Source: Planctomycetota bacterium (GTDB lineage Bacteria; Planctomycetota; SZUA-567; H5-PLA8). From it: DNA of 64,000 nucleotides. Where the stretch lies: NCBI GenBank assembly GCA_038227875.1, contig JBBRPR010000010.1, positions 64,001 to 128,000 of the forward strand, given 5' to 3'. This document shows, piece by piece, positions 20,069-62,098 of the stretch. How positions within the stretch are numbered: the first letter of the stretch is position 1; each line of letters opens with the position of its first letter. The translations under genes were made by a program, and so were the position numbers. The notes beneath the pieces are model-generated. The model was not told where the DNA came from. It was given only the letters and a program-made list of their open reading frames with translations, and made no database searches.

Positions 20069-20089
20069 ACGCCTTTTATAAACGTACAC

Positions 20090-20122
20090 ACTGAGGACTA
20101 CGAGAGTTTCGTAGTCCTCAGT
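20090..20122 (+). terminator. Hairpin/terminator after surface protein gene
   Basis: ACTGAGGACTACGA-GAGTT-TCGTAGTCCTCAGT 14-bp stem followed by TGTTT. Confidence 0.7.
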
Positions 20123-20143
20123 TGTTTGATAGGAGAAAAATAA

Positions 20144-20365
20144 ATGTCCGACGAAACCGTCAATCCCTGGCAGCTGGCTGAAGAAGGCTGGGCCGAACTG
20201 GTCGCCGCCGCCGCCAAGATTCAGAAAGCGTCCAACCTGATCAAGAAAACCGACCGCAGCGTTGACGGCTACAACGTCGAACGCTCGCTCAACAAGCATA
20301 AGCCGGCGCTGATGACCGAACACTACGAAGGCTTGAAGTTGCACCGGCAGGAACACAAGCTCTAA
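20144..20365 (+). CDS. Small hypothetical protein (73 aa)
   Basis: Strong RBS AGGAG, GC3-biased codons, helical amphipathic sequence. Confidence 0.7.
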   Translation: MSDETVNPWQLAEEGWAELVAAAAKIQKASNLIKKTDRSVDGYNVERSLNKHKPALMTEHYEGLKLHRQEHKL

Positions 20366-20457
20366 GACGCACCATTGCTGAAGTTCGACGGCTTGCGTTT
20401 GCGCGCGGATCTGTTCCGGCGCAGGCTGACTCTGCCCACTTTTAGGACATTGTATAA

Positions 20458-21531
20458 ATGGGAAAGCTTGCTGAAGTTCTCCAGCCGTTCGTCGACCGCC
20501 GCGCACTGGCCGGCGCGGTGGCGCTGGTCGCCAACGCCGACAAAGTGCTCGCCGTGGAGACCGTCGGCTTTGCCGACATCGCCGCGAAGAAGCCGATGCG
20601 CCCGGACACGATGTTCTGGATCGCTTCGCAGAGCAAGCCGATCACCGGCGCGGCGCTGATGATCCTGGTCGACGAAGGAAAGGTTGACGTCGAGGACCCG
20701 GTCGAGAAGTACCTCCCCGAATTCAAAGACCAGATGCTGATCGCCGTGAAAGACGAGCATTTCACGGTGCTGAAGAAGCCCGACCATCCGATCAAGGTCC
20801 GCGAAGTCCTCTCGCACACCAGCGGCCTGGCGTTCTGCACGCCGATGGAAAGCCCGACGCTCGACGCGTTGACCCTGCGCGATTCGGTGCGCTCGCACGC
20901 GATTATGCCGCTGCAGTTTCAGCCTGGAACGAAGTACCAGTATTCCAACGGCGGCACGAACACCGCGGGACGGATCATCGAAGTCGCAAGCGGCATGCCC
21001 TACGAGGAATTCCTCGACGAGCGCCTGTTCAAACCGCTGGGGATGAAGGATACGACGTTCTGGCCGAACGAAGAACAGCTCTCGCGGCTGGCCAAGGCCT
21101 ACAAACCGACAGACGACAAGACCAACATGGTTGAGTTGCTGATCGGGCAACTGCGCTATCCGTTGTGGGACCGCTCGCGCAATCCGATTCCCGCGGGTGG
21201 ATTGTTCTCAACCGCCAGCGATTGCGCGCGATTCTGCCAGATGGTGCTCAACGGCGGCACGTTCGGAGGCCGGCGCTACATCAGCGAAGCGTCGATTAAA
21301 CGGATGCTCGCCCGCGAGACGGCCCCGACGCTGCCGGAACACTACGGATTCGGCTGGGCGACGGACGCCGACGGGTCCTACGGCCACGGCGGCGCGTTCG
21401 CGACCAACATGAAAATCAATCCGGCGCGCAAGCTGATCACCGTCTGGCTGATTCAGCACGTCGGCTTCCCCAACGACGGCGACAAAGCCCACGGCGTATT
21501 CTTGCAGACCGCGCTGACGCAATTCTCGTAA
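20458..21531 (+). CDS. Serine hydrolase, beta-lactamase class C family
   Basis: SQSK (SxxK), LSHTSGL, YSN, PAGGLFST, HGG motifs. Confidence 0.9.
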   Translation: MGKLAEVLQPFVDRRALAGAVALVANADKVLAVETVGFADIAAKKPMRPDTMFWIASQSKPITGAALMILVDEGKVDVEDPVEKYLPEFKDQMLIAVKDEHFTVLKKPDHPIKVREVLSHTSGLAFCTPMESPTLDALTLRDSVRSHAIMPLQFQPGTKYQYSNGGTNTAGRIIEVASGMPYEEFLDERLFKPLGMKDTTFWPNEEQLSRLAKAYKPTDDKTNMVELLIGQLRYPLWDRSRNPIPAGGLFSTASDCARFCQMVLNGGTFGGRRYISEASIKRMLARETAPTLPEHYGFGWATDADGSYGHGGAFATNMKINPARKLITVWLIQHVGFPNDGDKAHGVFLQTALTQFS

Positions 21532-21533
21532 AT

Positions 21534-21573
21534 AAAAGAAGCCTGCGCCCGACTTCGGGCGCAGGCTGTTTTT
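21534..21573. terminator. Bidirectional intrinsic terminator
   Basis: AGCCTGCGCCCG...CGGGCGCAGGCT stem with flanking A and T runs between convergent genes. Confidence 0.85.
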
Positions 21574-21578
21574 CGACG

Positions 21579-23702: not shown

Positions 23703-24060
23703 AAAGATTCGCTTTCTGGTGTGACAAAAGCACACCGGCCCCGTTGCGCGGGCGAGAATGTGTGCACGCGCAACGGTGGAATTAAAATTTGAACCGTAAG
23801 CGGACGCGCGCGCAGACGAATCGTCTGGCGGCACGGGCTTACACAGGGATCAATGAGGGCAGGGGAGCTCGCGGCAGCTGAACGAGCGGCTAGCGGCCGC
23901 AAGCCAGCTTATATTGCGTGACGGCACCTCGGTGCGAGGCGGCGAGCTGCATTCGGTGTGAGGATACGGAACATGGCAGCATTCCCAAATGGGCCCAGGT
24001 CGGCCGAGTGTGTCCGGATCACTAAATCACATGGAATGGGAGAATGCAAATCGGGCTGCG

Positions 24061-24816
24061 CTATAAACCTTCGCGCAATTCCTTCAGCGGAAAATTCTTC
24101 CCCGGGCAGGCGGTGCTGCCGCCGAGGCGCACTTGGTTGTGGCCGACCACGCTCGTGCCGGAAATGCTGTACTGGTGGCAGAGGCGAGTGATCAGCTTCT
24201 TCAGGGCGACAAGTTGTGCGGGGGTCGGGACATCCTGATCGAAGTTTCCCACCAGGCAGATGCCGATGCCGTGTTCGTTGTATTCGGTGGAGTTGGCGTG
24301 CGCGCCGGCTTCCTGGCTGTACCAGCGCGGACCGGCGACGATCGCGCCGTCGCCCTGGTCGGTGCCATTGCCGATCACGAAGTGGTAGCCGAGGCACTTC
24401 CAGCCGCGCTGCCGGTGGGCGACGTCGAAGATCTCCGCGCTGCCACGCACGCTGGCGGAGTGATGCAGCACGATGTATTTCCATTCGCGCGGCGGAGCAT
24501 TGGGGTCCGTGGTGAGCACTTCGTCGGTGAAAACGGCCGGCGCGGTCCATTTCATCGGCGGCTTGAGCGGCTTGGGATTGGGCACGGGACCGGAGGCGGC
24601 AAACAGTGCCCAGGAGCCGAGCGCCACGCAAATCGCCAGAATGCCGCCGCGGATCAGCACATCGACGACCGGATGCGCCGGCTTGCCGCCGGCAGCGGCG
24701 GGATTCGCGCTGCGGACTTTGTTTCTACGCGGTCGCGGGTACGATGAACCTGCCTGCCCGGCGGGAAGATGCAGCCCTGCGCGCATGCCGGAGAAGAAAT
24801 CCGTGATGAATCGCAT
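24061..24816 (-). CDS. Membrane-anchored N-acetylmuramoyl-L-alanine amidase (Amidase_2/PGRP-like)
   Basis: IVLHHSA, GYHFVI, GAHA, IGICLVGNF, VVGH...TACPG (Zn ligands H,H,C); N-terminal TM. Confidence 0.85.
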   Translation of the reverse strand: MRFITDFFSGMRAGLHLPAGQAGSSYPRPRRNKVRSANPAAAGGKPAHPVVDVLIRGGILAICVALGSWALFAASGPVPNPKPLKPPMKWTAPAVFTDEVLTTDPNAPPREWKYIVLHHSASVRGSAEIFDVAHRQRGWKCLGYHFVIGNGTDQGDGAIVAGPRWYSQEAGAHANSTEYNEHGIGICLVGNFDQDVPTPAQLVALKKLITRLCHQYSISGTSVVGHNQVRLGGSTACPGKNFPLKELREGL

Positions 24817-48116: not shown

Positions 48117-48782
48117 TTGAACTCGAATCTTCGAGCTTCGACGCGGGAGTTGTGGATGGCGATGGCAGCGGCCCTGGCAGACGGTCAGCAGATTTCGCAC
48201 TTCCGGTGTGAGCCGGATGCAACCGGCGCGAACGTCACGGCCGAATCGATCGAATCCTTGCGCGCAGGCGATGCCGGCTGCTGGGAGCGCCTGCTGATCC
48301 GCATGGAACGCCGCGCGCTGGCGCTGTCATGGCGGATTCTCAACGACGCGCATCTTGCCGCGGACGCGGTCCAGAACGCGTTCGTCAAAGCGTACACGCG
48401 CCGCTCTGCGCTCCATGCTGGCAGCGACGTGGAGCGCTGGCTGCTGGCGATCGTCGCCAACGCGGCCCGGGATATGGCCCGCCAGAACGCGCGCGCACAC
48501 GGACGAATTCAAGGCAACGCCGAAGAGTTGGCTCAGCGTGCGGAGCATGCCGCGCCGGAAGTCTGCGAGAGCGAAATGGAGCAGCGCTTGCGCGTGGCGT
48601 TATCGAAACTCGATGAGGAGTCGCGCGTGCTTTTTCTGCTCGTCCATCAGGAAGGCTTTTCGTACGAGGCCGTCGCGAAAGAACTGGGGTGGCCGCTGGG
48701 TACGGTGCGGTCGACGCTGCATCGGGCGCGGTTGAGGTTGCGTGAATTACTCAGAAATAGACGCGGGGAGTCCGGATCATGA
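48117..48782 (+). CDS. ECF RNA polymerase sigma factor
   Basis: AADAVQNAFVKAY, WLLAIVAN, GFSYEAVA...LGTVRSTLHRAR; start may be ATG 48156. Confidence 0.9.
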   Translation: MNSNLRASTRELWMAMAAALADGQQISHFRCEPDATGANVTAESIESLRAGDAGCWERLLIRMERRALALSWRILNDAHLAADAVQNAFVKAYTRRSALHAGSDVERWLLAIVANAARDMARQNARAHGRIQGNAEELAQRAEHAAPEVCESEMEQRLRVALSKLDEESRVLFLLVHQEGFSYEAVAKELGWPLGTVRSTLHRARLRLRELLRNRRGESGS

Positions 48783-49627
48783 ACTGCGATTCAGCGCAAA
48801 TCCTGATTCAAGCGCGGCTCGACCGCGAGCTGGATGTCGAGCGCGCCATCGAGTTGGGGGGGCACCTGGCGCTCTGCCCGGAATGCCGCGACTTGTCTGC
48901 GGATCTAGAACAGTGTTGTGTCTCGGCCGGAGTGCTTCCTGAGTTTCGCACCGGCAGTGTGGTGAGCGCAGCGGCGTTGAATCGGATACGCAATGCAGAC
49001 CAACTGCCGAGGCGGAATTGGAGACCGCAGTGGGCCGCTCTGGCGGCAGGTATCGCGATGATCCTGGGATTCGGCGGCTATTTTCGTCTTCGAAGCCCTT
49101 CTCTAACCGAATATCCGAAAGCCGCCGCGCCCGACCGGGTTGTTGTTCCGAAAATTCCTCCACCACATTCAATTCCAGTCGCGCCTGCACCCGCGCCCGA
49201 GGTGGAAATGAATCAGGATCCGATGCAGGCACTTCTGGTGGAGCACTACTGGAGCGAACACCGCCGCCCGGAAGGCGAACGCGCGCGCGAACGCCGCCGT
49301 GCCGAACTGCTTCGCGACTTGCGCAATCCAGACAAAGCCGGCGACGCTGCAGAGGAATTGCTGGATGACGCCGACAACGCCACAGTCTGGGCCGTGGCCG
49401 CGAGCGTGTCGGACACCTCCAGTGGAGCGGAGGTGTTCGCCGCTGCCGCGAAACTCAAGCCCGACCTGCGGCTGGTGCCGGTCTACATTGCCGCTCTCGA
49501 CGCTTCGAAAACACGCGCGCGCGCCACCGAGCTGCTGTGCAGCGCATCGGGAAAAAAGTTTGGATCTCAAAAGGAAATTTGGCTGACGTGGTGGGCCGGA
49601 GCCCGTTCTCAACTCCGCGATGATTAA
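48779..49627 (+). CDS. Zinc-finger (zf-HC2) anti-sigma factor with TM and HEAT-like periplasmic domain
   Basis: MNC...HLALCPEC, TM, Pro-rich linker, C-terminal LCSASGKKFG...WLTWW; ATGA overlap with the sigma gene. Confidence 0.85.
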   Translation: MNCDSAQILIQARLDRELDVERAIELGGHLALCPECRDLSADLEQCCVSAGVLPEFRTGSVVSAAALNRIRNADQLPRRNWRPQWAALAAGIAMILGFGGYFRLRSPSLTEYPKAAAPDRVVVPKIPPPHSIPVAPAPAPEVEMNQDPMQALLVEHYWSEHRRPEGERARERRRAELLRDLRNPDKAGDAAEELLDDADNATVWAVAASVSDTSSGAEVFAAAAKLKPDLRLVPVYIAALDASKTRARATELLCSASGKKFGSQKEIWLTWWAGARSQLRDD

Positions 49628-49664
49628 ATTTTCATGCTTTCGGATTCTTTCAGGAGCAGGCGAC

Positions 49665-50672
49665 ATGCGAAAACTATGGATGGTGATGCTGCTGTGTGGT
49701 GTGGTCTCTGGCGCGTCGGCCCCAGCGGAGGAGGCCAAGCCCGGACTCGCCGTTGAACTGCAGATTTACGATGTCGCGGACATTATCAAGCAGCCCACGG
49801 ATTTTCCGGCGTCAAGGCTGTATCCCGGCAACTCCGATTCGTCCATTGTGTCGCCTTTTGTTGACATTACGCCCGCGCCGTCGTTTCAGGCCGCGGATAT
49901 TGTTTCATTGCTGCACGACCGCGTATTTGCCGCCGAATTCGCCGATCCAAGGACCAGTATTGCCGAAAGTGGCGGCTGCCTGGTGGTGATGCAGACGCCC
50001 GCGATCCAGAAGAAGGTGACCAGTTACATTTCGAAGCTGCGCGGAATCATGAAACCGCAAGTGATCATCAAGGGAAAGTTGATGAGTGCAGCGGATATTC
50101 CTGCAGGAACGATCTTCGATGCCGCGGCGTTCTCAAAATTGAACGCGACGGTAAAGCCGGAGAGCATTCTCGCGTCAACCCGGCTGTTGAGTTACAACGG
50201 CCAACTGGTCCATACTCAGAGCGGACGGCTGTACAGCTACATCCGTGATTACGATGTCGCCGGAAGCGTCTACGACCCGGTGATTGGCCATGGACTGGAA
50301 GGCTATGTTTTTGAAACCCGCTCGACGCTCAGCAGCGATCGCAACAGTGCCGATGTCAATCTCCGCTTCACCTTCACTGCACCCAGCGGAAAGCCGGAGA
50401 CGCGCAACATCGTGCTGGCACCGCCGGTAACCTCGGTCACGGCCGCGGGAGAGAAAGCGCCGGACGCCGCCGCGGCTGCCCAGACGGTCACGCTCCCGAT
50501 AGACGTACCATCCATCGATGTCCAGGAAATCAGCACCACGCTGCGCGTGCCCCTGGGCAAATGGATGCTGGCTGGCGTGATGAACAACCCCGTCCCCAAT
50601 GCGGCAGAGAAACGCGTGCTGCTGTTTATCAGCATCGAACTGGCCGGAACTAACGCTCCCGCTGCCAAGTAG
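49665..50672 (+). CDS. Mini-secretin-like protein 1
   Basis: Signal peptide; IYDVADI N-domain; TRLLSYNGQ...YDPVI...STLSSDRN...TTLRVPLGKWMLAG...LLFIS resembles the secretin beta-core. Confidence 0.65.
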   Translation: MRKLWMVMLLCGVVSGASAPAEEAKPGLAVELQIYDVADIIKQPTDFPASRLYPGNSDSSIVSPFVDITPAPSFQAADIVSLLHDRVFAAEFADPRTSIAESGGCLVVMQTPAIQKKVTSYISKLRGIMKPQVIIKGKLMSAADIPAGTIFDAAAFSKLNATVKPESILASTRLLSYNGQLVHTQSGRLYSYIRDYDVAGSVYDPVIGHGLEGYVFETRSTLSSDRNSADVNLRFTFTAPSGKPETRNIVLAPPVTSVTAAGEKAPDAAAAAQTVTLPIDVPSIDVQEISTTLRVPLGKWMLAGVMNNPVPNAAEKRVLLFISIELAGTNAPAAK

Positions 50673-50722: not shown

Positions 50723-51805
50723 ATGCGTACACGATGTATGACAGTTCTGATGGTCGTGGGTTGCCTGGCATCCTGTGCCTTTGGCGCCGACGATCCGCCC
50801 AAGATCGACGTCGAAATGAAAATCTACGACGTCCATAGCCTCGTAAACCCGGTTGTGGATTATCCCGGTCCGGATTTGAATTTAGGCGCGTCTCCTGTCT
50901 CTGCCGCCCCCACGGCACCGATGGGCAACGGGGTGAGTCCCAAGGTAACGGTCGTTCCCACGGTCGCGAATATTGTAGACATGCTCAAATCCCGAGTGCG
51001 ACCGGAATCATGGGATCCAGCGCTCGGGACCAGTGTCGAGGAGATGAGCGGCTATCTCGTGATCATGCAGCGGCCCGAAGTTCATGCATTGATTACTCAA
51101 CTGCTCGCCGCGTTTAGCAACACGTCGCAAAGGCAGGTGGTGGTCAAGTCACTGCTCATTCCCGCGGCCACAATTCCCGACGAGACGTTCTTCGACGACG
51201 CTGAACTGAACAAGGCATTCGATGGCAACGCGGCCGCGGCTGCTGTTGCCGCGCCGCGCATATCCTGCTTCAACAAGCAGCGCGTTTACGTGCTGAGCGG
51301 AACTATGGTCTCTGTCGTTCGCGACCTGGACGTCAACGGCGATAGTTACGATCCCGTCGTGACGTCGCAGGTCGATGGCTTTGTTCTCGATGTGCGCCCC
51401 ACGGTTTCCTACGACAGCAGCGTGACGGAACTGGAGCTACGCGCCTCGTTTAACACCAATTTGAAGCGCAATCCCCGGACGCTGGGGACCCCCGCTTCCA
51501 GCGCACTGCGCTCCGTGGCGGCGCTGGCGCAGGAAGAGTCGAGTAGCACCACGACAAAAAAAGAGAACGGCCATGACGAAGTCACTGCCAGCAGCCGCCG
51601 CCCCGCTGGCCAGATCCTGAACGCGCAGTACCTGGTCGGAATCGACATGGATTTTCCCTCCGTCGACAGCGGCAATGTTCGCACGGAACTTTCGATCCCC
51701 ACGGGGAAATGGGTGCTCGCCGCGACGCTGAACAACCCCGACGCAAAATCTCCCAAGAAGAACATGTTGCTCTTCGTGAGTTCCGAAACGATCGACACGA
51801 AGTGA
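50723..51805 (+). CDS. Mini-secretin-like protein 2
   Basis: RBS AAGGAG; signal peptide; IYDVHSL, RVRPESWD, APRISCFNKQR, GFVLDVRPTVSYD, RTELSIPTG, LLFVS. Confidence 0.7.
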   Translation: MRTRCMTVLMVVGCLASCAFGADDPPKIDVEMKIYDVHSLVNPVVDYPGPDLNLGASPVSAAPTAPMGNGVSPKVTVVPTVANIVDMLKSRVRPESWDPALGTSVEEMSGYLVIMQRPEVHALITQLLAAFSNTSQRQVVVKSLLIPAATIPDETFFDDAELNKAFDGNAAAAAVAAPRISCFNKQRVYVLSGTMVSVVRDLDVNGDSYDPVVTSQVDGFVLDVRPTVSYDSSVTELELRASFNTNLKRNPRTLGTPASSALRSVAALAQEESSSTTTKKENGHDEVTASSRRPAGQILNAQYLVGIDMDFPSVDSGNVRTELSIPTGKWVLAATLNNPDAKSPKKNMLLFVSSETIDTK

Positions 51806-51892: not shown

Positions 51893-52007
51893 TTCCAGAC
51901 ATTTGGGCGTACTCGCAACGCTCAAGCGTCAACGCATCCATGACACCCGCCTTCCGCGTGCGTTTTTTATTTTGAATTTTAAATTTTTAACTTTCCCCGC
52001 CCCATCC

Positions 52008-52034
52008 TGTAACCTCGCCTGTTCCCAAGCGTCT
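52008..52034 (+). promoter_or_regulatory. Putative ECF-type promoter
   Basis: TGTAAC-N16-CGTCT, preceded by an AT-rich tract, about 20 nt upstream of ATG 52054. Confidence 0.5.
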
Positions 52035-52053
52035 CACGTGGGTGCGAACAGGC

Positions 52054-52680
52054 ATGGCTGAAAAAGCGATACCCATCGGCGCCGGAGCTGCAATGAGCTC
52101 CGCTGCCGCGGACGTCTCCGATGCGGAGCTGCTGCGCCGCGTCGCTGCGTCCGATCACCTCCCGGCACGGACCAGGGCGCTGGAACTGCTCTTCGAACGG
52201 CACTCCGAACCGCTGCTCCGCTTTCTCACCCGTACCCTGCGCCACGAACACACCGCCGAAGACATCCTTCACGACGTGTTTGTGCGCGTCGCGGAAGCGG
52301 CGCCGACGTTCCGGGGAGAAAGCACTGTGCGCACGTGGCTCTTCACTCTGGCCTTGAACAAAGTCCGCAGCGGCAAACGCCGCGACGCCGTCGAAAACCG
52401 CGCCACCGAAATGATGGTGGCGTCCCGGCCGGCGCAACACACCGATCACAAGCACGATCCGTTCGAGCAGGCGCAGCAGCGCGAATTGCGCCAGCGCGTC
52501 GACGTGGCCATCGGCGAACTAGGCGCAGACGAACGCGAAACCTTTCTGCTCTACTGGTTCGGCGGCATGAACTACGCCGAAATCAGCGCCGCCAGCAACA
52601 TCACCGTTTCCGCGGCCAAGGTGCGCGTCCATCGCGCGCTGCTGCGTTTGAACAAACTTCTGGGCGAGGCCACGGCGTGA
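52054..52680 (+). CDS. ECF RNA polymerase sigma factor
   Basis: SDAELL, AEDILHDVF, FRGESTVRTWLF, NYAEIS...AAKVRVHRA. Confidence 0.9.
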   Translation: MAEKAIPIGAGAAMSSAAADVSDAELLRRVAASDHLPARTRALELLFERHSEPLLRFLTRTLRHEHTAEDILHDVFVRVAEAAPTFRGESTVRTWLFTLALNKVRSGKRRDAVENRATEMMVASRPAQHTDHKHDPFEQAQQRELRQRVDVAIGELGADERETFLLYWFGGMNYAEISAASNITVSAAKVRVHRALLRLNKLLGEATA

Positions 52681-52729
52681 CGTTTTACTCCGCCTGTTTT
52701 CGCCGACTGCAATTTTGGGAGAGCCGTAC

Positions 52730-55700
52730 ATGAACCAGACCTGCGAACACATTGAAGAGCAAATTCCCGATGCGCTCAGCGGCCGCTTGAATGGCGCCGC
52801 GCTGGCCGAACTGGAAGCGCACTGCGAAATCTGTGCGGATTGCCGGGCACTCTACGGTTCATTCGAACAGACCACGCAACTGTTGGAACGCGCGTTTCCC
52901 GTCTCGGGCGGCCATCGTCCTGAACTGTGGGATCGGATCGAATCCAGCGTGAGCGCCAAGTCGGCGCGCATGGCCGCGCCACGCGTGATTCCGGCGTGGG
53001 GCCCGATCGCTGCCGCCGCCGCGATGGTTGCGCTCGCTGTTCTGCTCTTTGCCGGAAGCCCGGCGCGCCGCACCGAAAACGTTGCGAGCGTGACTGTGCC
53101 ACCCATCACAGAAACTCCACGTGAGAAAACGTCGAAAAGCACGACGCCGACGCCCGTGGCGATCGCGCGCGGTCCTCGTGAGGTCATCGACGACACGCGC
53201 GGCCTGGCGCTCTTGCGGACGACCGGCCCGGTCTTTACGTTCGACGCGGAGCACCAGGCGTGGCGTCAGGTCGTCTCCGGTGAGCGAATCGCTTATGGCG
53301 CCGCGCTCCGCACCGCGCCCGGCGCACTGGCGGAACTGGCCTTCGGCGAAAGCCGGGTGCGCGTCGATGAAAAGTCGGAAGTCACGGTCTCCAACGCGAC
53401 GGTATCCGCCGCGCGGGTGGCTGAATTGACGCACGGCCGTGTGCGCGTCGATCTGCTCCATTCCGAACGCCCCTTTCAGATCCGCTCCGGCGGCGGCATG
53501 GTGGAACTCACCGGTACCGTCGTCGACGTGGACGCGCCGGCCACCGATCTCGCTTTCGTGCAGGTCCTCGAAGGCCACGTCCGCGTCACGCCCGCCGCGA
53601 ACACAGCCGACGTTGCGCCCGTATCCGTCGTAGCTGGGCAGGAAGCGTTGGTCGCGTCGCGCATCAACGCTGCGCTGCTGAAGTCTCTCCCTGCCGACGT
53701 GCAAGCGCGCTTGAGCGCCTTCAAATCGTCGCAGGCCCTCGGCCGCGATGCAGCCGCGAACTGGACGGATTCGCTCGATCATCCGCCGTCGCCGAAAAAT
53801 TCCGCGATCGGACAACTGATCGTCAAAGACGAACACGGCCGCGAAGCCGAACCACTGCGCATCGTCAGCATGGATGTGAAAACGCAGGTTCGCGGTCCAG
53901 AATCGATCACCCGTATCGACCAGAGCTTCTACAACTCCACCAACGGTACGTTGGAAGGCACGTTCTATTTCAACGTGCCGCCCGGAGCCGCGATCTCGCG
54001 CTTTGCGATGTACGTCGACGAAAAAAATCTGATCGAGGGTGAAGTTGTCGAACGTGGCCGGGCCCGCGCCATCTACGAATCGATCCTGCACGCCAAGCGC
54101 GATCCCGCGCTGCTGGAATGGGTCGACGGCAACACCTTCAAAGCGCGCGTCTTCCCGATCCAGGCGCGCAGCAACAAGCGTATCATCATGGAATACACGC
54201 AGGTGCTGCCTGCGTTCTTCGACACGCGACGTTACGTTTTTCCGCTCGTCAGCGATCTGGCGCAGAAAGCCGAAATCGGAAAACTGAGCATCCAGGTTCA
54301 ACTCGCCACCGGCGACAGCTCGAGCTTCAGCGAAATCGCGTCGCCGTCCTACTCAAGCGACCTGCGCATCCAAGGCGATGGTGAAGCCTTCGCCACTGCG
54401 TCGCTCCATCTGGAGCACGCCCGCCCGGCGGCCGACTTTGTCCTCAATTTCTCCGCGCCGCGCGCGTCGGAACTCTACGCGTCGGCATATGCGCAGAACG
54501 GCGAGCAGCCCTACCTTCTATTGGGCTACCAGCCGCGCCTTCCGGCCACCTACAAGCGCGCCGCGAATGCCGCGGGCCGCGACATTCTCTTCGTCGTGGA
54601 AACCTCCGGCGCGCGCACGCCGCAGGACCTGAGCGCCCAGCGCCAGGCGCTCACCGCGATGCTCGCCGCGCTGAACGATAACGATCGCGTCGCATTCGCC
54701 GCCGCCGACATCGGACTCGTGCCGCTCACGACACGTTTTCTCCCCGCGCGCGCCGCGGAAGTCGATGCCGCTCTCGCCGCGCTCAAGCAGCGTGTGGCGA
54801 TGGGCGCGCTCGATCTCTCGGCGAGCATTCGCGCCGCCGCTACCAGCTTCGATACATCAGCCCCAACTCGCGAGCGCCTGATGCTCTTCATCGGCTCCGG
54901 CGTGCCCGCGCTGGGCGAACTCGACAGCGGCAAAATCGCAGCGGAAGGTGCGGAAGCTCTGGCCAAAGCGAAAGCGTCGTTCGTCGCCGTCTCGCTCGGC
55001 CAATCGGTCGATGCGCTGACGCTCTCGGAAGTCGCGCGCCGCAGCAATGGTTTCTATCTGCCGCTGAAAGCCGACGAAGGCCTCGACGCCGCCGCCTTCC
55101 AACTGGCGCTCGGTCTGCAAACGCCGCTGCTCACGTCGCCGGAATTCAAAGCCGACGCCAACTGCACCGCCGAAATCTATCCCGCGAACCTCGGCGCGTT
55201 GCTGCCCGGCCAGGAGATCTTCCTCAACACGCGCGCCGCCAAAACCGGCGCTTCAGTGCTTCGCTTCACGCTGAGCGCCGAACTTCAGAAGCAGCCGTTC
55301 ACGTCCAACTTCGTGGTCGCGCTCCCGTCCGACCTCAGCGCCGACCCCGCCGCCGGCCGTTTCTGGGCGCGCGCGCGTCTGGATCATCTCCTCGCGCAGC
55401 CGCAAAGCGACGAATTGCGCAACGAAGTCATCGAACTGGCCAAAACCTGGACGCTGATGAGCCCGTACACATCATTCCTGGTGCTCGAATCCAACGAGGA
55501 ATACAAACGCTACGACATCGACCGCAGCAAACGCCGCCCGGCCTGGCGGGATCTGGAAGCTCCGACAGTGGCTCAGAATCCGGGCCAGTCGCTCATCGGT
55601 GTGCTCACCCGCGTCAAAGGCAGCAGGAGCGGGGTCGCCTACGAGAAGTCTGCGAATGCCTATGTAATTCGCGATCCTGCTGCGGAATCCACCGGCTTGC

Positions 55701-58700
55701 TGCAAGAAGGATTGAAGTTCTTCAACGAACTCGAATACGAGTCGGCGAAGCCGGCTCTCGAGCGCGCCGTTCTTCTGGATCCGACCAACGAAGTTGCAAA
55801 GCAGAAACTGCAGACTGTGAACTCGTTGCTCGCAATCCATGTAGACAAAATCGGGCGCAAGATTCGCGAATTGGAACAGGGGGAGCGCGTCAGGCAGTCG
55901 GAGTCGCTGGTCCAACTTGCCAACGCGTTTCAAGATGGCCGGAGTCAAGAAGAACTGGGCTCAAAGCCCGCGCAAGAAACGACCGGCGCGAACAAGGAAC
56001 AGATTCTTGCCGACCAGCTCGACCATTTGCGAAAGGCACAGGACAAGTTCCGCCGCGTCACAGAAATCCTGAACTGGTTGCCGCCGTCGTTCGACCTGCC
56101 GTCTGAACGTGCGTCAGTCGAAGATTCCTTGAAGCGCACTAAACAGAAAATCGCTGAGAAGGAAGACGAGATCATTTACCTGCGACGCGTCGCTGCGCAA
56201 AAAGAGGCCGACGAAAACCGCGTGCGGGAGACGGAATTGTTCAAGGCGCGCATTGCCAAACTGACCGAGCAGGTCAAGGATCGCTACTATCGCGGCGACT
56301 ACAAAGCAGCCGAGCGGCTGTCGACGCGGATTCTCCAGATAGATCCGTTCAACACGGACGCTGAAGGCTGGAAGTTGAAAGCGCAGGGAGCGGGGATGTC
56401 GCTCAACGGAAGAAACGCTTCAGAGCATCCTGATGAATACGTGGACGCGGATATCGACAAAGCGACCATTGGGTTTGCGCCAATCATTCTCTACCCATCT
56501 AACTGGGACCAGATTACACGGCGTGTGGACGATTTGACAAAAGTATCGCGCGGCAGCTTGGCTGAGAAAGCAAGTATCGGCAAAGAGTATCAAGGATTGG
56601 ATGCCCGAGTCTTATTCGGCGACTTTGGAGATATTAAGAATTTGCCACGCGTCGATCTGGGAACGACACGCGGCGAAGTCATTGATCCCTTCAAAGCTCC
56701 ACTGAGATGGGACCTTCAATCGCAAGCCGACGCGCACCGCGAAGCCGGGAAGCGCCTGTTCGATTCCTTCAAGCTCGCGGATACCAATCTCGAGAGTTCA
56801 GATTCTCGAAAATCCAAACAAGAGCAGAGTGAATTCGATCAATTGAAGCGCGAAATTGAAGATTTACGAAAGCGGCTAAAGACTGCGGGAACAAACCCGC
56901 GAATCACCTATGTGGATAGCGTGTTGGATAGCAAATATGGTCCCAATACTTCTGTAACCACGAAGAACGGCGATCTGAAAATCGGTGGGCTGACTCAGGC
57001 CTGGCATGGGAAAGAGTCAGATCCAGAGACCGCGGCTCGCATCCATGGTGTGGATTCGGAAACTGGCGAGTCGAATGCCGAGCAACGGGCTCGCATGCGC
57101 GAATACGAGAAGCAGAAATTCAGCACGGTAGAAAAGGCAGCAGAGGACCTAACAAAAGCGCAGCAAGACGATGAGTTGAAGAGCTATAAAGTTCTTAACG
57201 GTCGGCTCGATGTCCACTCGGAAGAGGTCGCTGAAGTCCGGGACAATGACACGGAAACAACCGGCCGCAAAGAGGTCGCCATCGCCGCGAAGGACAATAC
57301 CATCCGCCAGCAGGAATCACTGCTCGCTCAGGAGAAAGCGGAGAAGGAGACACTCGCCGAACAGAACAAGGCGTTGGCTGAACAGAATCTCCAACTCGCT
57401 GAAAAGAACGCCAGGATCGCCCAAGAGCAGGCTGCGGAAACGATGGCGCTGGGTCAGAAAATTGCGGAACAGGACAGTTTACTTCATGACTTGGGAACGC
57501 TGTACTCGCGCGGCGCGATGACGGATACGAAGCACGACGCGTTGGAGAAGATGCCGGAATCGGCAACGAAAACGCCAGCGCTTTCTCCGGAACTTGAGAT
57601 CTACGATGTCCGCGATTTGACAAATACCATTGCCGACTTCCCAGGACCGGAATTGAAGCTGGAGAAGAAAGAGGCCGCTCCGCCGACGCCTCCAACGGAA
57701 ACGGCGACACCGCCAAAGAGAGACATTGCGGATCTGATGGCAAAATTGATCGACAAGGGTGTGCCCAATACGTCGATTGCAGAGAACAACGGGCAACTCG
57801 TGGTCATGGCCGACCCCGTGTCCCAGGCGAAGGTGGCGAAGGCGTTGAAGGAAATGCGCGAGCCCAACAACTCCAATATCTTCGAAACGATAAATGATCA
57901 GTTGAAGACTGCTCGCAATACCGCAAAAAGCGGGGGATTCGGACCCGTGAGTTCGCCGCAGCCGAAAATCTGCGCGATCTGTAATCAGCCTTTGTTCAAG
58001 CACGCCGATCCGAATTTTGTCTGTCAGCCAAACGCGGACCGTAGCGACCAGCGAGCAAACCAGGAGTTGCGTCTCAAGTTCAACGCCGAACGGGATGCTC
58101 ATCAGGAGGCTCTCGCAAAACTCGCGACTGCGGAGCACGAAAATGGCAAGCTGCTGGCTGAAGACCAGGAATACATCAAGAAAAGTACGCAAGAATTGAA
58201 CGACCACACGTCGGTATTGAGTTCGCCGGTGCTCTTCCAGGGATTGACCAAGGAGCTGCTACGTACCACGCCAACCGACCCGCAGGTCCGCGCGCGAAAC
58301 GAGAAGTCGGAACTCGAATATGAATTGGCGATCACCAACCAGACGCTCAGCGCGCTGGAAAAGGATAAGCGCAGCGTTGAAGAAGACCTGGCACTTCAAA
58401 CCAGCCGAATTGAGCGGCTGCTAAAATCAGGTGTTCCAATCGCTCGGCTTCTGGGAGAAGATTCGGCGTCCGATGGGCCAGCCACAGCCTCGGCACCGAA
58501 AACCCCTCCAGCAAGCGCGCCTGGCGATGTTCTTCCAGGCTTCTTTAGCCGCGCGGAGATTCCGTTGGATCTGCCGCAAACCTCCCAGCGAATCGAAGTC
58601 ACGAAAGTGGTCCCGTCGCCGGTGCCGGAACATCCCGCGTCGCATGAACAACCCTACCGGGCAACCTTCGGTCCGATCAGTAACGATTCGGCCGACATCG

Positions 58701-60430
58701 CGAAGCTCAAAGATGAAGTGAACGCCGCCAAGCAGAAGCTCGCGCAGCAGAATCGGGACAAGCATGCCATCGAAGAAGATCTCGCCCTGCAAACCAGCCG
58801 CATTGAAAGGCTGATGAAGAACGGCGTGCCGATCGCGCATCTTGTTGGGGAAGATCCAACCGCGACGCAACCGTTCGTCGCCGATGGCCAAGTGCTGGGC
58901 GTTCGTCCTGAGATTAGACTTGTGATGCTGTCCATAGGTTCGCAACAGGGCGTCAAGCCTGGCTTCCAGTACACCATTAAGCGCGGTGACCAATACGTCA
59001 CACGAGTAATTGTCGAAAAGGTGTATCCAGATATGTCGTCGGCCCGCTATGTCGAAGGTCTTATGAATAAAGAAGGCCGTGAGGTCGAAGTGAACGACGA
59101 AGTCATCACGCGTGGCGGGAGCGCACCCGTCTCCGACGACAAACCCCTCGCGCCGAAAACCGCACCCGTCAATCTCTCCCGCGACCAAATCGCCGCACTG
59201 CTTGCCACCATGCCCAAAAATTCCGATGTCGCCGCCGCGCGTGCGGAACTTTACCGCAAGCTTGCGGCGCTCAGCACTGGGCTTGACGCCTGCCGCGTCC
59301 TCGCGCAAGGCCTCGCGGAATTCCAGGGTGAAGGGACGCAGGCCGAACAGCTCGCGGGCGATGTCGTTGTGCTCGTCGACAGTGAATCCAGCGCGGCGGT
59401 GCTCGACGCGATGCTGCCGCTGCTCAGCGATGAAAATCTGCGAGCGCGGGTGCTCGCTCGGCGCGGCGCGGTGGAACCGGACTTGAACAAGCGCTGTGAA
59501 TTTCTGGCGTCGGCGTTCGAAGCGTCCGGAAAAGAAGTGTCGTACCTTCACCCGCTGGCGGTGGCGCTGAATACCGGAGGGCGTCACGCTCAAGTCATTG
59601 CGCGGCTGGAAGCGAGTCTGCGTTCCGGCGGCGCGCAGAATTGGATGTGGCCGCTGCTCACCGTGTCGTACCGCGCGATCGGCGATGCGGCCGGCGCACT
59701 GCGCGCGGGCTCGCAGCTTGTCGCGCAGCATCCGCGGGAAGCGGCGCCGCGCATGGAATTCGCACGGGCGCTGGATGGCCTGGGCCGGGGTGCCGATGCG
59801 ATCCGCGAAATGCGCGCAGCCTGCACGTTTGCGCCGGAGAACGTCGACGCGGTGCGCGCGCTGCGCGACCTTTCTAAAAAGTACGACGATGCGGAAACGC
59901 GCGCGTGGGCGCTGCTGGCGCTGCTCCGCAACGACTGGGGCAACGACAGCCAGCCGATCTGGGCCGACACGCGCAAGGAACTGGACGCGCTGAAAGCCGA
60001 TTTTCTCAAAGCCGGAATGAAGGACAAGGCCGCGGATCTCGCCAGCCGAGCCCGCGAAGCGGACGTCACCGACATCGTCGCGGTGATGAGCTGGAACACG
60101 GACAAGACCGACATTGATCTGCACGTGGAAGAGCCCGGCCAGCAGCGCGTCAGCTACAATTCACGCTCGACGTTCCGCGGCGGCAACCTCGATCACGACA
60201 ACACCTCCGGCTACGGCCCGGAGACGTACACGCTGCGCCACGCGCCGGCCGGGCGGTACATCATCAAGGTCCACTACTATTCCGGCCAACCACCGACCGA
60301 CGTGACGATCAACGTCACGCGCCGCAAGGGCGGAGCAGAAGAGACGACGCAGACGTTCCACGTTCACCTTGAGAAGGCGCATGACGAGCAGATTGTGGAG
60401 ACGATCGATATTCCGAACGGAACGGAATGA
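52730..60430 (+). CDS. Giant anti-sigma factor: zf-HC2 + TM + FecR + VIT + vWA + mosaic insert + TPR + DUF2135-like
   Basis: HCEICADC; TM; FecR (LTHGRV, GTVVDV, VLEGHV); VIT (LEGTFYF...ARAIYE...RDPALLEW...RVFPI); vWA-like FVVETSG; MSPYTSFLVLE; TPRs; SWNTDKTDIDLHVEEP...DNTSGYGPE. Single uninterrupted frame. Confidence 0.85.
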   Translation: MNQTCEHIEEQIPDALSGRLNGAALAELEAHCEICADCRALYGSFEQTTQLLERAFPVSGGHRPELWDRIESSVSAKSARMAAPRVIPAWGPIAAAAAMVALAVLLFAGSPARRTENVASVTVPPITETPREKTSKSTTPTPVAIARGPREVIDDTRGLALLRTTGPVFTFDAEHQAWRQVVSGERIAYGAALRTAPGALAELAFGESRVRVDEKSEVTVSNATVSAARVAELTHGRVRVDLLHSERPFQIRSGGGMVELTGTVVDVDAPATDLAFVQVLEGHVRVTPAANTADVAPVSVVAGQEALVASRINAALLKSLPADVQARLSAFKSSQALGRDAAANWTDSLDHPPSPKNSAIGQLIVKDEHGREAEPLRIVSMDVKTQVRGPESITRIDQSFYNSTNGTLEGTFYFNVPPGAAISRFAMYVDEKNLIEGEVVERGRARAIYESILHAKRDPALLEWVDGNTFKARVFPIQARSNKRIIMEYTQVLPAFFDTRRYVFPLVSDLAQKAEIGKLSIQVQLATGDSSSFSEIASPSYSSDLRIQGDGEAFATASLHLEHARPAADFVLNFSAPRASELYASAYAQNGEQPYLLLGYQPRLPATYKRAANAAGRDILFVVETSGARTPQDLSAQRQALTAMLAALNDNDRVAFAAADIGLVPLTTRFLPARAAEVDAALAALKQRVAMGALDLSASIRAAATSFDTSAPTRERLMLFIGSGVPALGELDSGKIAAEGAEALAKAKASFVAVSLGQSVDALTLSEVARRSNGFYLPLKADEGLDAAAFQLALGLQTPLLTSPEFKADANCTAEIYPANLGALLPGQEIFLNTRAAKTGASVLRFTLSAELQKQPFTSNFVVALPSDLSADPAAGRFWARARLDHLLAQPQSDELRNEVIELAKTWTLMSPYTSFLVLESNEEYKRYDIDRSKRRPAWRDLEAPTVAQNPGQSLIGVLTRVKGSRSGVAYEKSANAYVIRDPAAESTGLLQEGLKFFNELEYESAKPALERAVLLDPTNEVAKQKLQTVNSLLAIHVDKIGRKIRELEQGERVRQSESLVQLANAFQDGRSQEELGSKPAQETTGANKEQILADQLDHLRKAQDKFRRVTEILNWLPPSFDLPSERASVEDSLKRTKQKIAEKEDEIIYLRRVAAQKEADENRVRETELFKARIAKLTEQVKDRYYRGDYKAAERLSTRILQIDPFNTDAEGWKLKAQGAGMSLNGRNASEHPDEYVDADIDKATIGFAPIILYPSNWDQITRRVDDLTKVSRGSLAEKASIGKEYQGLDARVLFGDFGDIKNLPRVDLGTTRGEVIDPFKAPLRWDLQSQADAHREAGKRLFDSFKLADTNLESSDSRKSKQEQSEFDQLKREIEDLRKRLKTAGTNPRITYVDSVLDSKYGPNTSVTTKNGDLKIGGLTQAWHGKESDPETAARIHGVDSETGESNAEQRARMREYEKQKFSTVEKAAEDLTKAQQDDELKSYKVLNGRLDVHSEEVAEVRDNDTETTGRKEVAIAAKDNTIRQQESLLAQEKAEKETLAEQNKALAEQNLQLAEKNARIAQEQAAETMALGQKIAEQDSLLHDLGTLYSRGAMTDTKHDALEKMPESATKTPALSPELEIYDVRDLTNTIADFPGPELKLEKKEAAPPTPPTETATPPKRDIADLMAKLIDKGVPNTSIAENNGQLVVMADPVSQAKVAKALKEMREPNNSNIFETINDQLKTARNTAKSGGFGPVSSPQPKICAICNQPLFKHADPNFVCQPNADRSDQRANQELRLKFNAERDAHQEALAKLATAEHENGKLLAEDQEYIKKSTQELNDHTSVLSSPVLFQGLTKELLRTTPTDPQVRARNEKSELEYELAITNQTLSALEKDKRSVEEDLALQTSRIERLLKSGVPIARLLGEDSASDGPATASAPKTPPASAPGDVLPGFFSRAEIPLDLPQTSQRIEVTKVVPSPVPEHPASHEQPYRATFGPISNDSADIAKLKDEVNAAKQKLAQQNRDKHAIEEDLALQTSRIERLMKNGVPIAHLVGEDPTATQPFVADGQVLGVRPEIRLVMLSIGSQQGVKPGFQYTIKRGDQYVTRVIVEKVYPDMSSARYVEGLMNKEGREVEVNDEVITRGGSAPVSDDKPLAPKTAPVNLSRDQIAALLATMPKNSDVAAARAELYRKLAALSTGLDACRVLAQGLAEFQGEGTQAEQLAGDVVVLVDSESSAAVLDAMLPLLSDENLRARVLARRGAVEPDLNKRCEFLASAFEASGKEVSYLHPLAVALNTGGRHAQVIARLEASLRSGGAQNWMWPLLTVSYRAIGDAAGALRAGSQLVAQHPREAAPRMEFARALDGLGRGADAIREMRAACTFAPENVDAVRALRDLSKKYDDAETRAWALLALLRNDWGNDSQPIWADTRKELDALKADFLKAGMKDKAADLASRAREADVTDIVAVMSWNTDKTDIDLHVEEPGQQRVSYNSRSTFRGGNLDHDNTSGYGPETYTLRHAPAGRYIIKVHYYSGQPPTDVTINVTRRKGGAEETTQTFHVHLEKAHDEQIVETIDIPNGTE

Positions 60431-60523
60431 CGATGCGATTGGGTTCAAATTACAACTTTTGCACTTCCCAAGACTTTGCGAAACTGTTAATAACACCCTC
60501 GGGGGAAACTAGGGTAATGTTAG

Positions 60524-62098
60524 ATGCGCTGTTCCCTCGTGCGGTTCGGTGTCTATTTGGTTTTTGCGGCAAGCCCTTTCGTGGCCTATGCCAGCTCGAT
60601 TGATGACCTGCGGCAGGAAGTCGAGCGCCTCAAAAAAGAAGTCGCGGTCCACGCCGCTCCCGAAATCCCCATTGAACAAAAATATCCCGGCTCCGTCGAC
60701 GCCTGTTCATCCGCTGTTGCGGTGCGCAGCCGTGCGACATTGACCGTCGGCGGCTTGCTGCAGGTCTGGTATCAATCGGTTCAGAACGATCGGCGCGGCA
60801 TCGTCTTCAATTCGCCGGTCAGCGATCTCAGCGGCGAATCGAACCAGACCAACGACAACGATACCTTCCGTATTCGCCGCGCGGAACTGCGCTTCGTCGC
60901 CGATGTCGACGAGCATTTCAGCGCTCACGTCACGCTGGATCCAGCGCGTGAAAGTTCGGCCTCGTTTTACCCGCTGCCCACGTTCATGAATCACAACCGG
61001 CTGCTGTCGCCGGCGCTTCCCAACACCACGCTTGGCGGTGTACCCGTCGCCGCGGGCACACGCACGACGCTCAGCGCCAACCAGATCACGCCTTTATTAT
61101 TGGAAGACGCGTACATCAGCATTCACGATTGGCTGCCGCACCATGAAGTTCTGCTCGGACAGATGAAGCCGCCGTCGGGCGCGGAAGCGTGGACGGACAA
61201 TGGCGACCTCGATTTTGTCGAACGCTCACTGATCGCGCAGGCGTCGGACATCCGCGACATCGGCGTGATGGTCCACGGCACGTGGTTCTGCGAACGACTG
61301 CAGTACTGGGTCGGGGCGTTCAACGGGCCGGACGGCACGACACTGGCCGATACCGAGAACGTCACCGGTGCCAATCGCGCTGACGACAACAACGACAAGG
61401 ATTTTGCGTGGCGTGTTCTGGCCCGGCCGGTGTGGAATGCCGATGCGTGGTCCGGCCGCCTGGAAGTCGGCTACGCGCGCACCGATGGCTACCGCGGCAG
61501 CAGCGGCCAGGCCTTCGATGCGTCGACGCCGCTCAACGCGTTGAACGAGCAGCGTACCGCCATCAACCGGCAGAACGCCTGGTTGACGTACCGTCCCGGC
61601 GGAGTGCTGCGCGGCGTCTGGGCGCGCGGCGAATGGGAATCGCAGCATGCACGTTTTAGCGCGTTCCGCGGCCGCACGAATCTGCTCGGCACGGGTTCCG
61701 ACGCCGCGAGCATTGATGGGACAACGGTGATCTTCGGGCAGCTGAACCCCGCGCCGGTGACCGCGTCCGGCTGGAGCGCTTCGGCCGGCTACCGCCTCTC
61801 GGAATCCCGCTTCGCCGCTTGTTCGTGCGATTCCTCGGGTCTGCGCCAGGCGCTGAACAATTTGGAGTTCGCCTTCCGCGCCGAACAGTATGAAAACGTC
61901 GCCGCCGAAAGTTTCGTGAATCCCGATCGCGCCACGAATCTCTACCGCACGCGCGTCTACACCGGCGGCGTGAATTACTACATGAGCGCCGCGAGCAAAC
62001 TGCAGTTGAACTACGGTATCGTCAAAGACCCCCGCAGCGGAGCCCTCCGCGACGTCCGCAACAATTTCCTCGCGCTGAATTTCCAGGTGGGGTTTTGA
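60524..62098 (+). CDS. Outer-membrane porin (OprO/OprP-like family)
   Basis: Signal peptide, coiled coil, FRIRRAEL, LEDAY, GQMKPP, LDFVERS, RDIG, GAFNG, GVNYY and terminal FQVGF. Confidence 0.8.
   Translation: MRCSLVRFGVYLVFAASPFVAYASSIDDLRQEVERLKKEVAVHAAPEIPIEQKYPGSVDACSSAVAVRSRATLTVGGLLQVWYQSVQNDRRGIVFNSPVSDLSGESNQTNDNDTFRIRRAELRFVADVDEHFSAHVTLDPARESSASFYPLPTFMNHNRLLSPALPNTTLGGVPVAAGTRTTLSANQITPLLLEDAYISIHDWLPHHEVLLGQMKPPSGAEAWTDNGDLDFVERSLIAQASDIRDIGVMVHGTWFCERLQYWVGAFNGPDGTTLADTENVTGANRADDNNDKDFAWRVLARPVWNADAWSGRLEVGYARTDGYRGSSGQAFDASTPLNALNEQRTAINRQNAWLTYRPGGVLRGVWARGEWESQHARFSAFRGRTNLLGTGSDAASIDGTTVIFGQLNPAPVTASGWSASAGYRLSESRFAACSCDSSGLRQALNNLEFAFRAEQYENVAAESFVNPDRATNLYRTRVYTGGVNYYMSAASKLQLNYGIVKDPRSGALRDVRNNFLALNFQVGF

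Follow-up and report, generated by a model that had tools for sequence, protein, structure and literature searches.

What is the long periplasmic middle of a giant anti-sigma factor made of, and what might it do for the cell? The question is raised by a gene in a 64,000-nt stretch of DNA (the window) from a Planctomycetota bacterium (assembly GCA_038227875.1, contig JBBRPR010000010.1, positions 64,001–128,000, forward strand). The genome to which it belongs (G000) is a sediment metagenome bin of 9.3 Mb in 176 contigs, with a completeness of 88% and a contamination of 4%, and the relatives of its proteins carry names from Planctomycetota. An earlier note on this DNA had described the middle of the protein as a mosaic of fragments of other envelope proteins and had proposed that it acts as a decoy or bait. 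Comparison of the protein with its own genome, with related genomes and with a collection of 5.8 billion proteins indicates that, in this lineage, the variable region is very probably assembled from copied periplasmic modules, the originals of which belong to envelope proteins of the same cell.

The gene is a single open reading frame (ORF) encoding 2571 residues (52715–60430; coordinates are those of the window, all features described lie on its forward strand, and residues of the giant are counted from the TTG at 52715). The copy in the public collection has 2566 residues, consistent with a start at the ATG at 52730, five residues later. The domains follow one another in the order zf-HC2, transmembrane (TM) helix, FecR, VIT, von Willebrand factor A (vWA), a middle of 1197 residues, TPR and DUF2135. 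The zf-HC2 anti-sigma domain (52742–52846, aa 10–44), predicted to be cytoplasmic, scored 17.9 bits against a Pfam cut-off of 22.2, with orthologs scoring 21–31 bits, and its H-x3-C-x2-C motif is visible in the translation as HCEICADC. A lone hydrophobic stretch (AWGPIAAAAAMVALAVLLFAG; 52994–53056, about aa 94–114), recognized by eye and not with a predictor, is a probable TM helix. Above the Pfam cut-offs were FecR (PF04773; 53306–53584, aa 198–290; 38.4 bits against 24), VIT (53864–54196, aa 384–494; 81 bits) and VWA_3 (54581–55057, aa 623–781; 56.8 bits), the last two standing in the order of the VIT-vWA module (53864–55057) of inter-alpha-trypsin-inhibitor heavy chains. The metal-ion-dependent adhesion site (MIDAS) position of the vWA domain (54590–54604, aa 626–630) reads ETSGA and does not match the canonical DxSxS. 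ETSG(A/G) stands there in all nine close orthologs aligned, and DTSLS, DVSGS or DISGS in distant paralogs; metal-dependent ligand binding may have been lost or altered in the giant's orthogroup. The variable middle (55559–59149, aa 949–2145) is followed by a conserved C-terminal module (59150–60427) of TPR-like sequence and DUF2135 (60242–60367, aa 2510–2551), 43–44% identical to that of orthologs; the DUF2135 match, at 14 bits, lies below the Pfam cut-off and aligns with the DUF2135 end of a stand-alone VIT-vWA paralog. We are confident in reading the giant as a membrane-bound anti-sigma factor of the extracytoplasmic function (ECF) sigma factor encoded just upstream, with a periplasmic layout of FecR, VIT-vWA, variable region and TPR-DUF2135.

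BLASTP searches of the middle against the 49,053 ORFs of the same genome, complemented by tblastn, gave matches spanning 988 of its 1197 residues. Residues 991–1306 (55685–56632) are a copy of the TPR region (residues 189–504) of a 1013-residue secretin, here secretin A, whose neighbour is secretin B; identity was 66% over 321 aa (E 4e-116), or 69% in a separate comparison, and the copied part begins after the source's lipobox and a Pro/Ala/Thr-rich low-complexity linker of ~165 residues. When this copy was searched in the 5.8-billion-protein collection, all 23 matches were secretins, the first being the secretin of the same genome (69%, 417 bits). Next comes the mature N-terminus of Porin_O_P porins (56804–57007, aa 1364–1431; seven paralogs, 40–59%), beginning right after the porin signal peptide and comprising a short coiled coil and an apparent first strand. 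The coiled-coil stalk of an OmpA/MotB-like lipoprotein (57251–57523, aa 1513–1603; source residues 61–151, 77–78%) begins right after the source's lipobox cysteine (LLCTGC) and stops before the OmpA domain; it is the complete lipoprotein stalk. It is followed by an old, diverged module like a secretin N-domain (57575–57862, aa 1621–1716), 42% identical to residues 468–564 of secretin B, and by a copy of the Cys-cluster segment at the N-terminus of a secreted DUF2225/TPR protein (57860–58024), which begins after the source's signal peptide and Ser/Thr-rich linker; residues 1716–1852 of the giant match residues 41–174 of this protein (37% over 137 aa), and a separate search gave 56% over 75 aa. 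The secretin β-barrel domain (PF00263) was not found in the giant with Pfam, and the copied secretin parts are the TPR region and the N-domain only.

The last module (58025–59113) derives from a 291-residue protein with a TM helix, a coiled coil and a small β-barrel. BLASTP aligned it with aa 1771–1943 (51%) and aa 1996–2133 (83%) of the giant, and an alignment of 13 rows showed that aa 1771–2133 correspond to the whole ectodomain, that is, to everything after the source's TM helix and first coil. This copy is 73% identical to its source in the same genome, compared with 28–61% between the source and its orthologs in other genera. It is broken by an insertion of ~113 aa that repeats part of the coil (aa 1865–1927 against 1996–2058, 51%), and at all columns without variation among the 13 rows it keeps the shared residue.

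The source proteins were identified with Pfam and NCBIfam. The secretins are nearest to the type-IV-pilus secretins Amuc_1098, MshL and PilQ, below the NCBIfam family cut-offs, and the OmpA-like source falls among the MotB/OmpA peptidoglycan binders. Neither the ESM Atlas nor NCBIfam gave a name for the 291-residue source. Its AlphaFold model (mean predicted local distance difference test (pLDDT) score 86) has a TM helix, a helix of ~190 residues and a small β-barrel; a Foldseek search of the Protein Data Bank returned nothing at E 0.001 or better, the best match being MreC (E 1.5e-3), and the modelled layout may be called MreC-like only. The gene is followed by one for a 215-residue membrane protein with a Lys/Ala/Pro/Asp-rich repeat tail and no family name (L002:423–1067, contig C88). 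Taken together, the middle strings stalks, TPR arrays and small domains of periplasmic origin one after another, with no membrane anchor or barrel among them, and there is little doubt that most of the copied modules correspond to the N-terminus of the mature source protein.

Much of what the earlier note had seen thus holds. The frame does stay open from the VIT-vWA module to the C-terminal part, the middle is less GC-rich than its flanks (0.552, against 0.645 in the N module and 0.652 in the C module; the spot counts of 32/60 at 56521 and 40/60 at 54661 are exact) and its GC at third codon positions (GC3) drops to 0.635 between values of 0.767 and 0.777. The pieces likened to a secretin TPR region, coiled coils, a Cys cluster and a small β-domain could all be traced by BLASTP to several separate envelope proteins of the same genome, and the duplicated piece is real. 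Two claims stood in part. Of the two matches proposed within the window, that to a secretin N-domain was found, in two short ORFs (49620–50672 and 50723–51805, 31–35% identical to aa 1621–1716) and not in a full secretin; that to the porin at 60524–62098 was weak (27%, E 9e-4, in a comparison of four sequences), the good porin matches lying outside the window. The word fragments is apt in part only, given the complete ectodomain and the complete stalk.

As a control, we asked how many ORFs of at least 1000 aa in this genome have at least four distinct partners at E<1e-10 and at least 40% identity. Six of 325 do, the giant included, and one of the other five is secretin A, whose strongest partner is the giant. 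In those on contigs C12, C17 and C16, at least two partner ORFs adjoin on one contig, so these cases read as split paralogs; the one on C34 has one adjacent pair together with partners on two further contigs. On C12 (~18149–24363), an ORF of 1045 aa is 63–78% identical to five consecutive short ORFs just upstream, which look like a fragmented neighbouring paralog.

How the copies relate to their sources was examined in trees. In a tree of 28 TPR sequences, anti-sigma copies stand at four places within the secretin A clade, each beside secretins of the same lineage: the giant pairs with the metagenome protein P0003 (85/91) in a group with the secretin A of its genome, P0004 with the metagenome secretin P0012 (96/92), the copy of the ortholog in genome G010 with secretins of its genus (98/95) and P0005 with the secretin A of genome G001 (98/93). 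Two further copies, from P0005 and G010, lie outside the clade, between it and the secretin B outgroup. The giant's own TPR copy is 69% identical to its secretin A and 56–57% to the matching pieces of P0003 and P0004. Forcing the five secretin-A-like copies into one clade cost 116.7 log-likelihood units (approximately unbiased test, P = 8e-65), in a first tree of 20 rows and with a group chosen after the tree had been seen, which tempers the result. A stand-alone ORF of ~215 aa on contig C20 (L005:2150–2857), 34–35% identical to the giant's TPR copy, looks like a dispersed secretin fragment; it sat on a long branch with the giant's copy and the genome's secretin A in the 20-row tree and was excluded from the 28-row tree. 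The ectodomain tree groups the copies of the giant, P0003 and P0004 with the 291-residue protein of the giant's genome (99/98), and the copies of the G008 and G010 orthologs each with their own protein (96/92 and 89/72, respectively). For the stalk, whose tree is short and mostly unresolved, identity was 78% to the source in the same genome, 63% to the P0003 piece and 46–50% to orthologs in other genera. In both the TPR and the ectodomain trees the branches of the free-standing genes are short and those of the copies long, which gives the direction of transfer as from envelope gene to anti-sigma factor. In all probability, the copies have been taken from, or homogenized with, genes of the same lineage several times in related genera.

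Substitution rates gave a consistent picture of age and constraint. Between copy and source, non-synonymous (dN) and synonymous (dS) divergence were 0.11 and 1.66 for the end of the ectodomain, 0.20 and 1.49 for the stalk and 0.42 and 1.57 for the first part of the ectodomain; for the TPR copy dN was 0.26 and dS too saturated to compute. The dN/dS values were 0.07, 0.13, 0.27 and 0.25, at dS of 1.5–2.5, which the difference in GC3 may inflate. The copies are, on these estimates, old and maintained in protein sequence, and we consider it highly probable that purifying selection has acted on them since they were acquired and that they have evolved faster than the source genes. Because dS is saturated, recent gene conversion was rejected as an explanation that could account for the likeness by itself; the lineage-matched sequence at the same position in several orthologs could stem from repeated re-copying or from gene conversion in the past.

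The middle behaves quite differently from its flanks when related genomes are compared. In 40 related genomes no collinear match to it was found, the best matches outside the giant's own genome being secretin A orthologs. Orthologs of the N module, 45–57% identical, belong to proteins of 3317 (G010), 2080 (G008), 2142 (G006), 2144 (G012) and 1357 aa (G014), and the G003 ortholog is split over two contigs; genome G017 counts only in the tallies of the 40-genome and N-module searches. Pairwise maps show the flanks kept, at 43–57% identity, up to about aa 946–961 and again from about aa 2140–2180, and the middle differing in length, order and content. This is the pattern of conserved flanks around a variable insert that the earlier note had predicted, and collinearity of the insert across genera was not seen. 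Alignment with a stand-alone VIT-vWA-TPR-DUF2135 ORF of 1108 aa in the giant's genome (contig C86; 27% over 577 aa) places the insert immediately behind the conserved LVLES...Y.R..I.R stretch with which the vWA core ends.

Within a narrower group the mosaic is shared. Only five other proteins in the 5.8-billion-protein collection match the middle at E 1e-5 or better; P0003 is collinear with the giant over aa 6–1431 (67%) and aa 1716–2569 (57%), and P0004 and P0005 only to about aa 1270, a pattern that indicates that the mosaic is inherited in a narrow group and rebuilt outside it. When the inserts of six members of the orthogroup (those of G000, G010, G008, G003, G006 and G014) were searched against their own genomes, self-copies were found in four, from four genera. 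Besides the giant, these were G010 (its own secretins, 59–72%), G008 (its own 294-residue protein, 63%, and secretins, 45–55%) and G003 (its own secretins, 57–65%, and porin N-termini). Related pieces also occur in other types of anti-sigma factor. The metagenome proteins P0006 and P0007, vWA/DUF3520 anti-sigma factors, bear the same kind of stalk-like and N-domain-like pieces, and in an anti-sigma factor of 845 aa from the giant's own genome, with zf-HC2 and five DUF4349 stretches (L007:1732–4323, contig C36), the OmpA-like stalk is present as a copy (37% over 182 aa, 61% over 61 aa).

What, then, might such copies do? We tentatively favour the idea that they co-assemble with their sources or compete for the sources' partners, coupling transcription to the state of the envelope machinery. 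The copied modules are the parts by which the source proteins stand in the periplasm and oligomerize, from which it may be supposed that the stalks, TPR arrays and oligomerizing domains still make the contacts of the originals. The copies would then join the assemblies of their sources or compete for the same partners, the ease with which the anti-sigma factor is cleaved and the sigma factor released would depend on how far these contacts are occupied or strained, and transcription would thereby be coupled to how much of the secretin, porin and OmpA-like machinery there is or how completely it is assembled. The recurrence of stalk or N-domain pieces in other anti-sigma types, and the secretin-derived ORFs at the locus, lend this some support. 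In a structure-prediction pairing test, residues 140–291 of the 291-residue source together with the copy obtained 0.56, whereas none of the three controls exceeded 0.00, with at least 92% of contacts shared among three runs and a partner pLDDT of at least 75. Of 157 solved complexes, 116 attained the mark for pairing, as did 2 of 215 mismatched pairs; scores at or below 0.60 account for only 18 of the 157 solved complexes and for both passing mismatches. The test gives weak support, and the pass may only mirror self-association of the source, to which the copy is 83% identical. A broader form of the idea, that some planctomycetes use self-mimicking anti-sigma factors renew their copies of secretin, porin and peptidoglycan-anchor modules from genes of their own lineage and read the engagement or destruction of these copies to release an ECF sigma factor, is in our view slightly less probable still.

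Several observations pull the other way, and some of them feed the strongest of the rival explanations, in which the region between vWA and TPR has no sensing role and is a permissive, periplasm-spanning spacer whose likeness to envelope proteins reflects neutral duplication and occasional conversion. The inserts of G006 and G014 (both genus g7) matched only themselves in their own genomes, so the copies are not essential to the protein family; that of G006 is a low-complexity, Ala/Pro/Glu/Lys-rich spacer, which a profile comparison did not relate to the 291-residue family (probability 0.05%). Distant giant paralogs hold unrelated content: those in G008 (contig C67) and G009 have one weak or no own-genome match in the insert, and that in G021 (L035:4749–7442) has at the same position an alpha/alpha-toroid domain with weak squalene-hopene-cyclase and A2M-TED-like Pfam matches, common to at least 20 proteins of that genome (37–47%, ~370–1100 aa, most about 530). 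The GC3 of the mosaic is below that of the source genes as well as the flanks, and this, like the long branches of the copies, fits relaxed constraint. Further points against the main reading concern the copies themselves. A metagenome secretin, P0010, is at 68% nearly as close to the TPR copy as the binned secretin; the match at aa 957–987 is weak (E 1e-3); the secretin N-domain tree has long branches and is unresolved; and the term own genome rests on binning, the genome being a metagenome bin of the completeness and contamination given above. Set against a spacer are the dN/dS of 0.07–0.27 despite saturated dS, the retention of all invariant columns in the ectodomain copy, and the recurrence of the same kinds of source, secretins foremost, in four genera and in other anti-sigma types, which random capture does not predict. 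A spacer without sensing role is on balance unlikely, yet it ranks first among the alternatives to co-assembly or partner competition.

Two other sensing roles are less probable than a spacer, and we regard each as doubtful. In the first, the copies would bind not the sources but third parties that the sources also bind, such as peptidoglycan-associated factors or the pilus assembly proteins that dock on the N-domains and TPR regions of secretins, and so gauge the amount of free partner. In other systems, secretin domains of the N0/STN type serve for docking, STN being also the signalling domain read by FecR-type proteins (FecA/FecR), and Pfam matches to STN, GspD N0 and Secretin_N occur in the inserts of orthologs. 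The evidence that speaks for co-assembly speaks equally for such ligand sharing, and the present data do not separate the two. The second is the decoy or bait of the earlier note, in which the copies would serve as surrogate targets, so that periplasmic proteases or hostile effectors hitting the real secretin, porins or OmpA-like protein would also cut or bind the copies and cause proteolysis of the anti-sigma factor. The copies track same-lineage sources and stay under purifying selection, as a mimic must, and insert content turns over between genera; DUF2135 also occurs next to bacterial alpha-2-macroglobulin genes. However, what has been copied are periplasmic stalks, TPR regions and N-domains, oligomerization modules rather than the exposed loops on which phage or external effectors act, and co-assembly or competition for partners fits such parts at least as well as a decoy does. 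In addition, the turnover is slow, dS being saturated, no protease gene or cleavage motif was identified, and Pfam searches at E up to 1 found no A2M, MG or TED family in the giant.

The contig itself appears sound. A Logan contig from sequencing run X1 spans 52000–61000 unbroken, with no differences and its depth, 11.9, is even; the bin may itself have come from the sample X1, and this contig is thus not independent. Run X2, which belongs to that study too, has small contigs that lie within the mosaic and are identical to it, and run X3, of another study, a contig (57127–57459, 11 differences) that crosses the start of the stalk copy. No RNA run was among those listed as carrying the locus. 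An artefact, whether a chimeric contig or source genes from another organism in the bin, is highly improbable despite the 176 contigs, the 4% contamination and the possible origin of the bin in X1: the frame is open for 2571 codons through at least six junctions, the pieces are 37–83% and not ~100% identical to their sources, so that collapsed repeats are no explanation, the X1 contig spans the gene, the X3 contig crosses one junction and P0003, from another data set, is collinear with the giant, and a chimeric assembly was rejected on these grounds.

The ECF sigma factor gene (52042–52680, start probably at the ATG at 52055) has Pfam matches to Sigma70_r2 and Sigma70_r4_2 and scored 93.8 bits against a cut-off of 42.9 for the NCBIfam sigma70-ECF model. 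It ends 35 bases upstream of the giant ORF, in the same direction, and a sigma gene lies upstream of the anti-sigma gene in six of six close orthologs. An ECF-type promoter-like motif, GTAACC-N15-CGTCT, precedes it (52009–52034), 8–20 bases ahead of the candidate starts, so that the leader would be very short; the layout GTAAC(C/T)...(CGTC/CATC) was present upstream of the sigma gene in all six orthologous loci examined. A genome scan for GTAAC(C/T)-N14-16-CGTC(T/A) returned 25 sites where ~44 were expected, none of them upstream of a source gene, which likewise counts against a feedback loop with the sources. The two best look-alikes led only to a HEAT-repeat ORF, and a regulon link through this motif was dropped.

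Directly downstream of the giant lies the Porin_O_P-type porin (60524–62098; PF07396, 59.4 bits), which was not found at the same place in the orthologous loci fetched. The two short secretin-derived ORFs upstream of the sigma gene, of 350 aa (49620–50672) and 360 aa (50723–51805), have no Pfam match; the former aligns with residues 467–581 (43%) and 774–901 of secretin B and the latter with residues 580–697 (52.5%) and 820–896 of secretin A, and both are by these alignments truncated secretin derivatives. Many small ORFs with secretin N-domain-like parts are also present in G003, G008 and G010. Directly upstream of the pair are genes for a second ECF sigma factor (221 aa) and a zf-HC2 anti-sigma factor (282 aa; 48117–49627). 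Among the neighbours scanned at the locus (the sigma gene, the porin and the two short secretin-derived ORFs), the genome not being searched, no TonB-dependent transducer with an N-terminal signalling domain was found.

The giant has partial counterparts among known regulators. It resembles the FecR-type/zf-HC2 (class I) ECF anti-sigma factors in its putative zinc-finger domain, probable single TM helix, FecR domain and adjacent upstream sigma gene, and differs from them in its ~2400 periplasmic residues, in showing no TonB-dependent transducer at the locus and in its sensor of self-copies. The ECF289-type anti-sigma factors have been described as fusions of DUF3520 to a von Willebrand domain (PMC7826278), in a paper whose main text has no occurrence of either 'VIT' or 'secretin'. 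Like these, the giant has a periplasmic vWA domain, and two metagenome proteins of that kind, P0006 and P0007, also carry the stalk-like and N-domain-like pieces; unlike ECF289-type proteins as so described, it has VIT-vWA and TPR-DUF2135 and lacks DUF3520. With the stand-alone VIT-vWA-TPR-DUF2135 proteins of its own genome, such as the 1108-residue ORF, it shares the core and the DUF2135 end, although these lack the anti-sigma, TM and FecR head, and in them the vWA core is separated from the TPR part by only ~200 aa. Where the giant has ETSGA at its MIDAS position, two further stand-alone vWA paralogs of its genome have DVSGS and DISGS, in a comparison in which the 1108-residue ORF did not figure.

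Two analogies of design are also of interest. The outer modules of RsgI proteins are carbohydrate-binding modules and bind external polysaccharide. In the RsgI anti-sigma-I factors of cellulolytic clostridia, the outer sensor modules are reported to match in kind those of the machinery under regulation (PMC6852018, PMC10328401). The modules of the giant differ in being lineage-tracking copies of periplasmic parts of envelope proteins. Plant NLR immune receptors carry integrated decoy domains copied from other host proteins, and the integrated domains of the giant likewise derive, by BLASTP and trees, from proteins of its host cell; kingdom, protein family and output all differ, and the likeness is one of design only. 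As analogies go, RsgI appears the nearest and the integrated domains of NLRs the more distant. Literature searches found no publication on an anti-sigma factor whose parts are copied from envelope proteins of its own cell and track their lineage, and nothing on an integrated decoy in combination with anti-sigma factors, on Planctomycetes anti-sigma factors in combination with secretins and ECF sigma factors, or on anti-sigma factors that mimic outer-membrane proteins through gene conversion.

Few systems are known to sense large outer-membrane machines, among them DegS/RseA (porin C-termini), RcsF and Psp (secretins). The giant suggests one more way, not described so far, in which a bacterium could keep watch on the machinery of its envelope, since its sequence points to a regulator that carries copies of the proteins it would monitor, the copies following the originals through evolution. 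Cases in which a bacterial sensor has captured domains from its own cell are rare, and this would be one. It also leads to directly testable predictions, on the proteins that the regulator would contact and on the perturbations that would free the sigma factor. For work on the giant anti-sigma factors of Planctomycetota, so far unstudied, and on the type-IV-pilus-like secretins of the phylum, it provides a point of departure. If the self-copies are indeed read as mimics, they would represent a bacterial counterpart of the integrated-domain immune receptors and a new principle for the sensing of envelope assembly.

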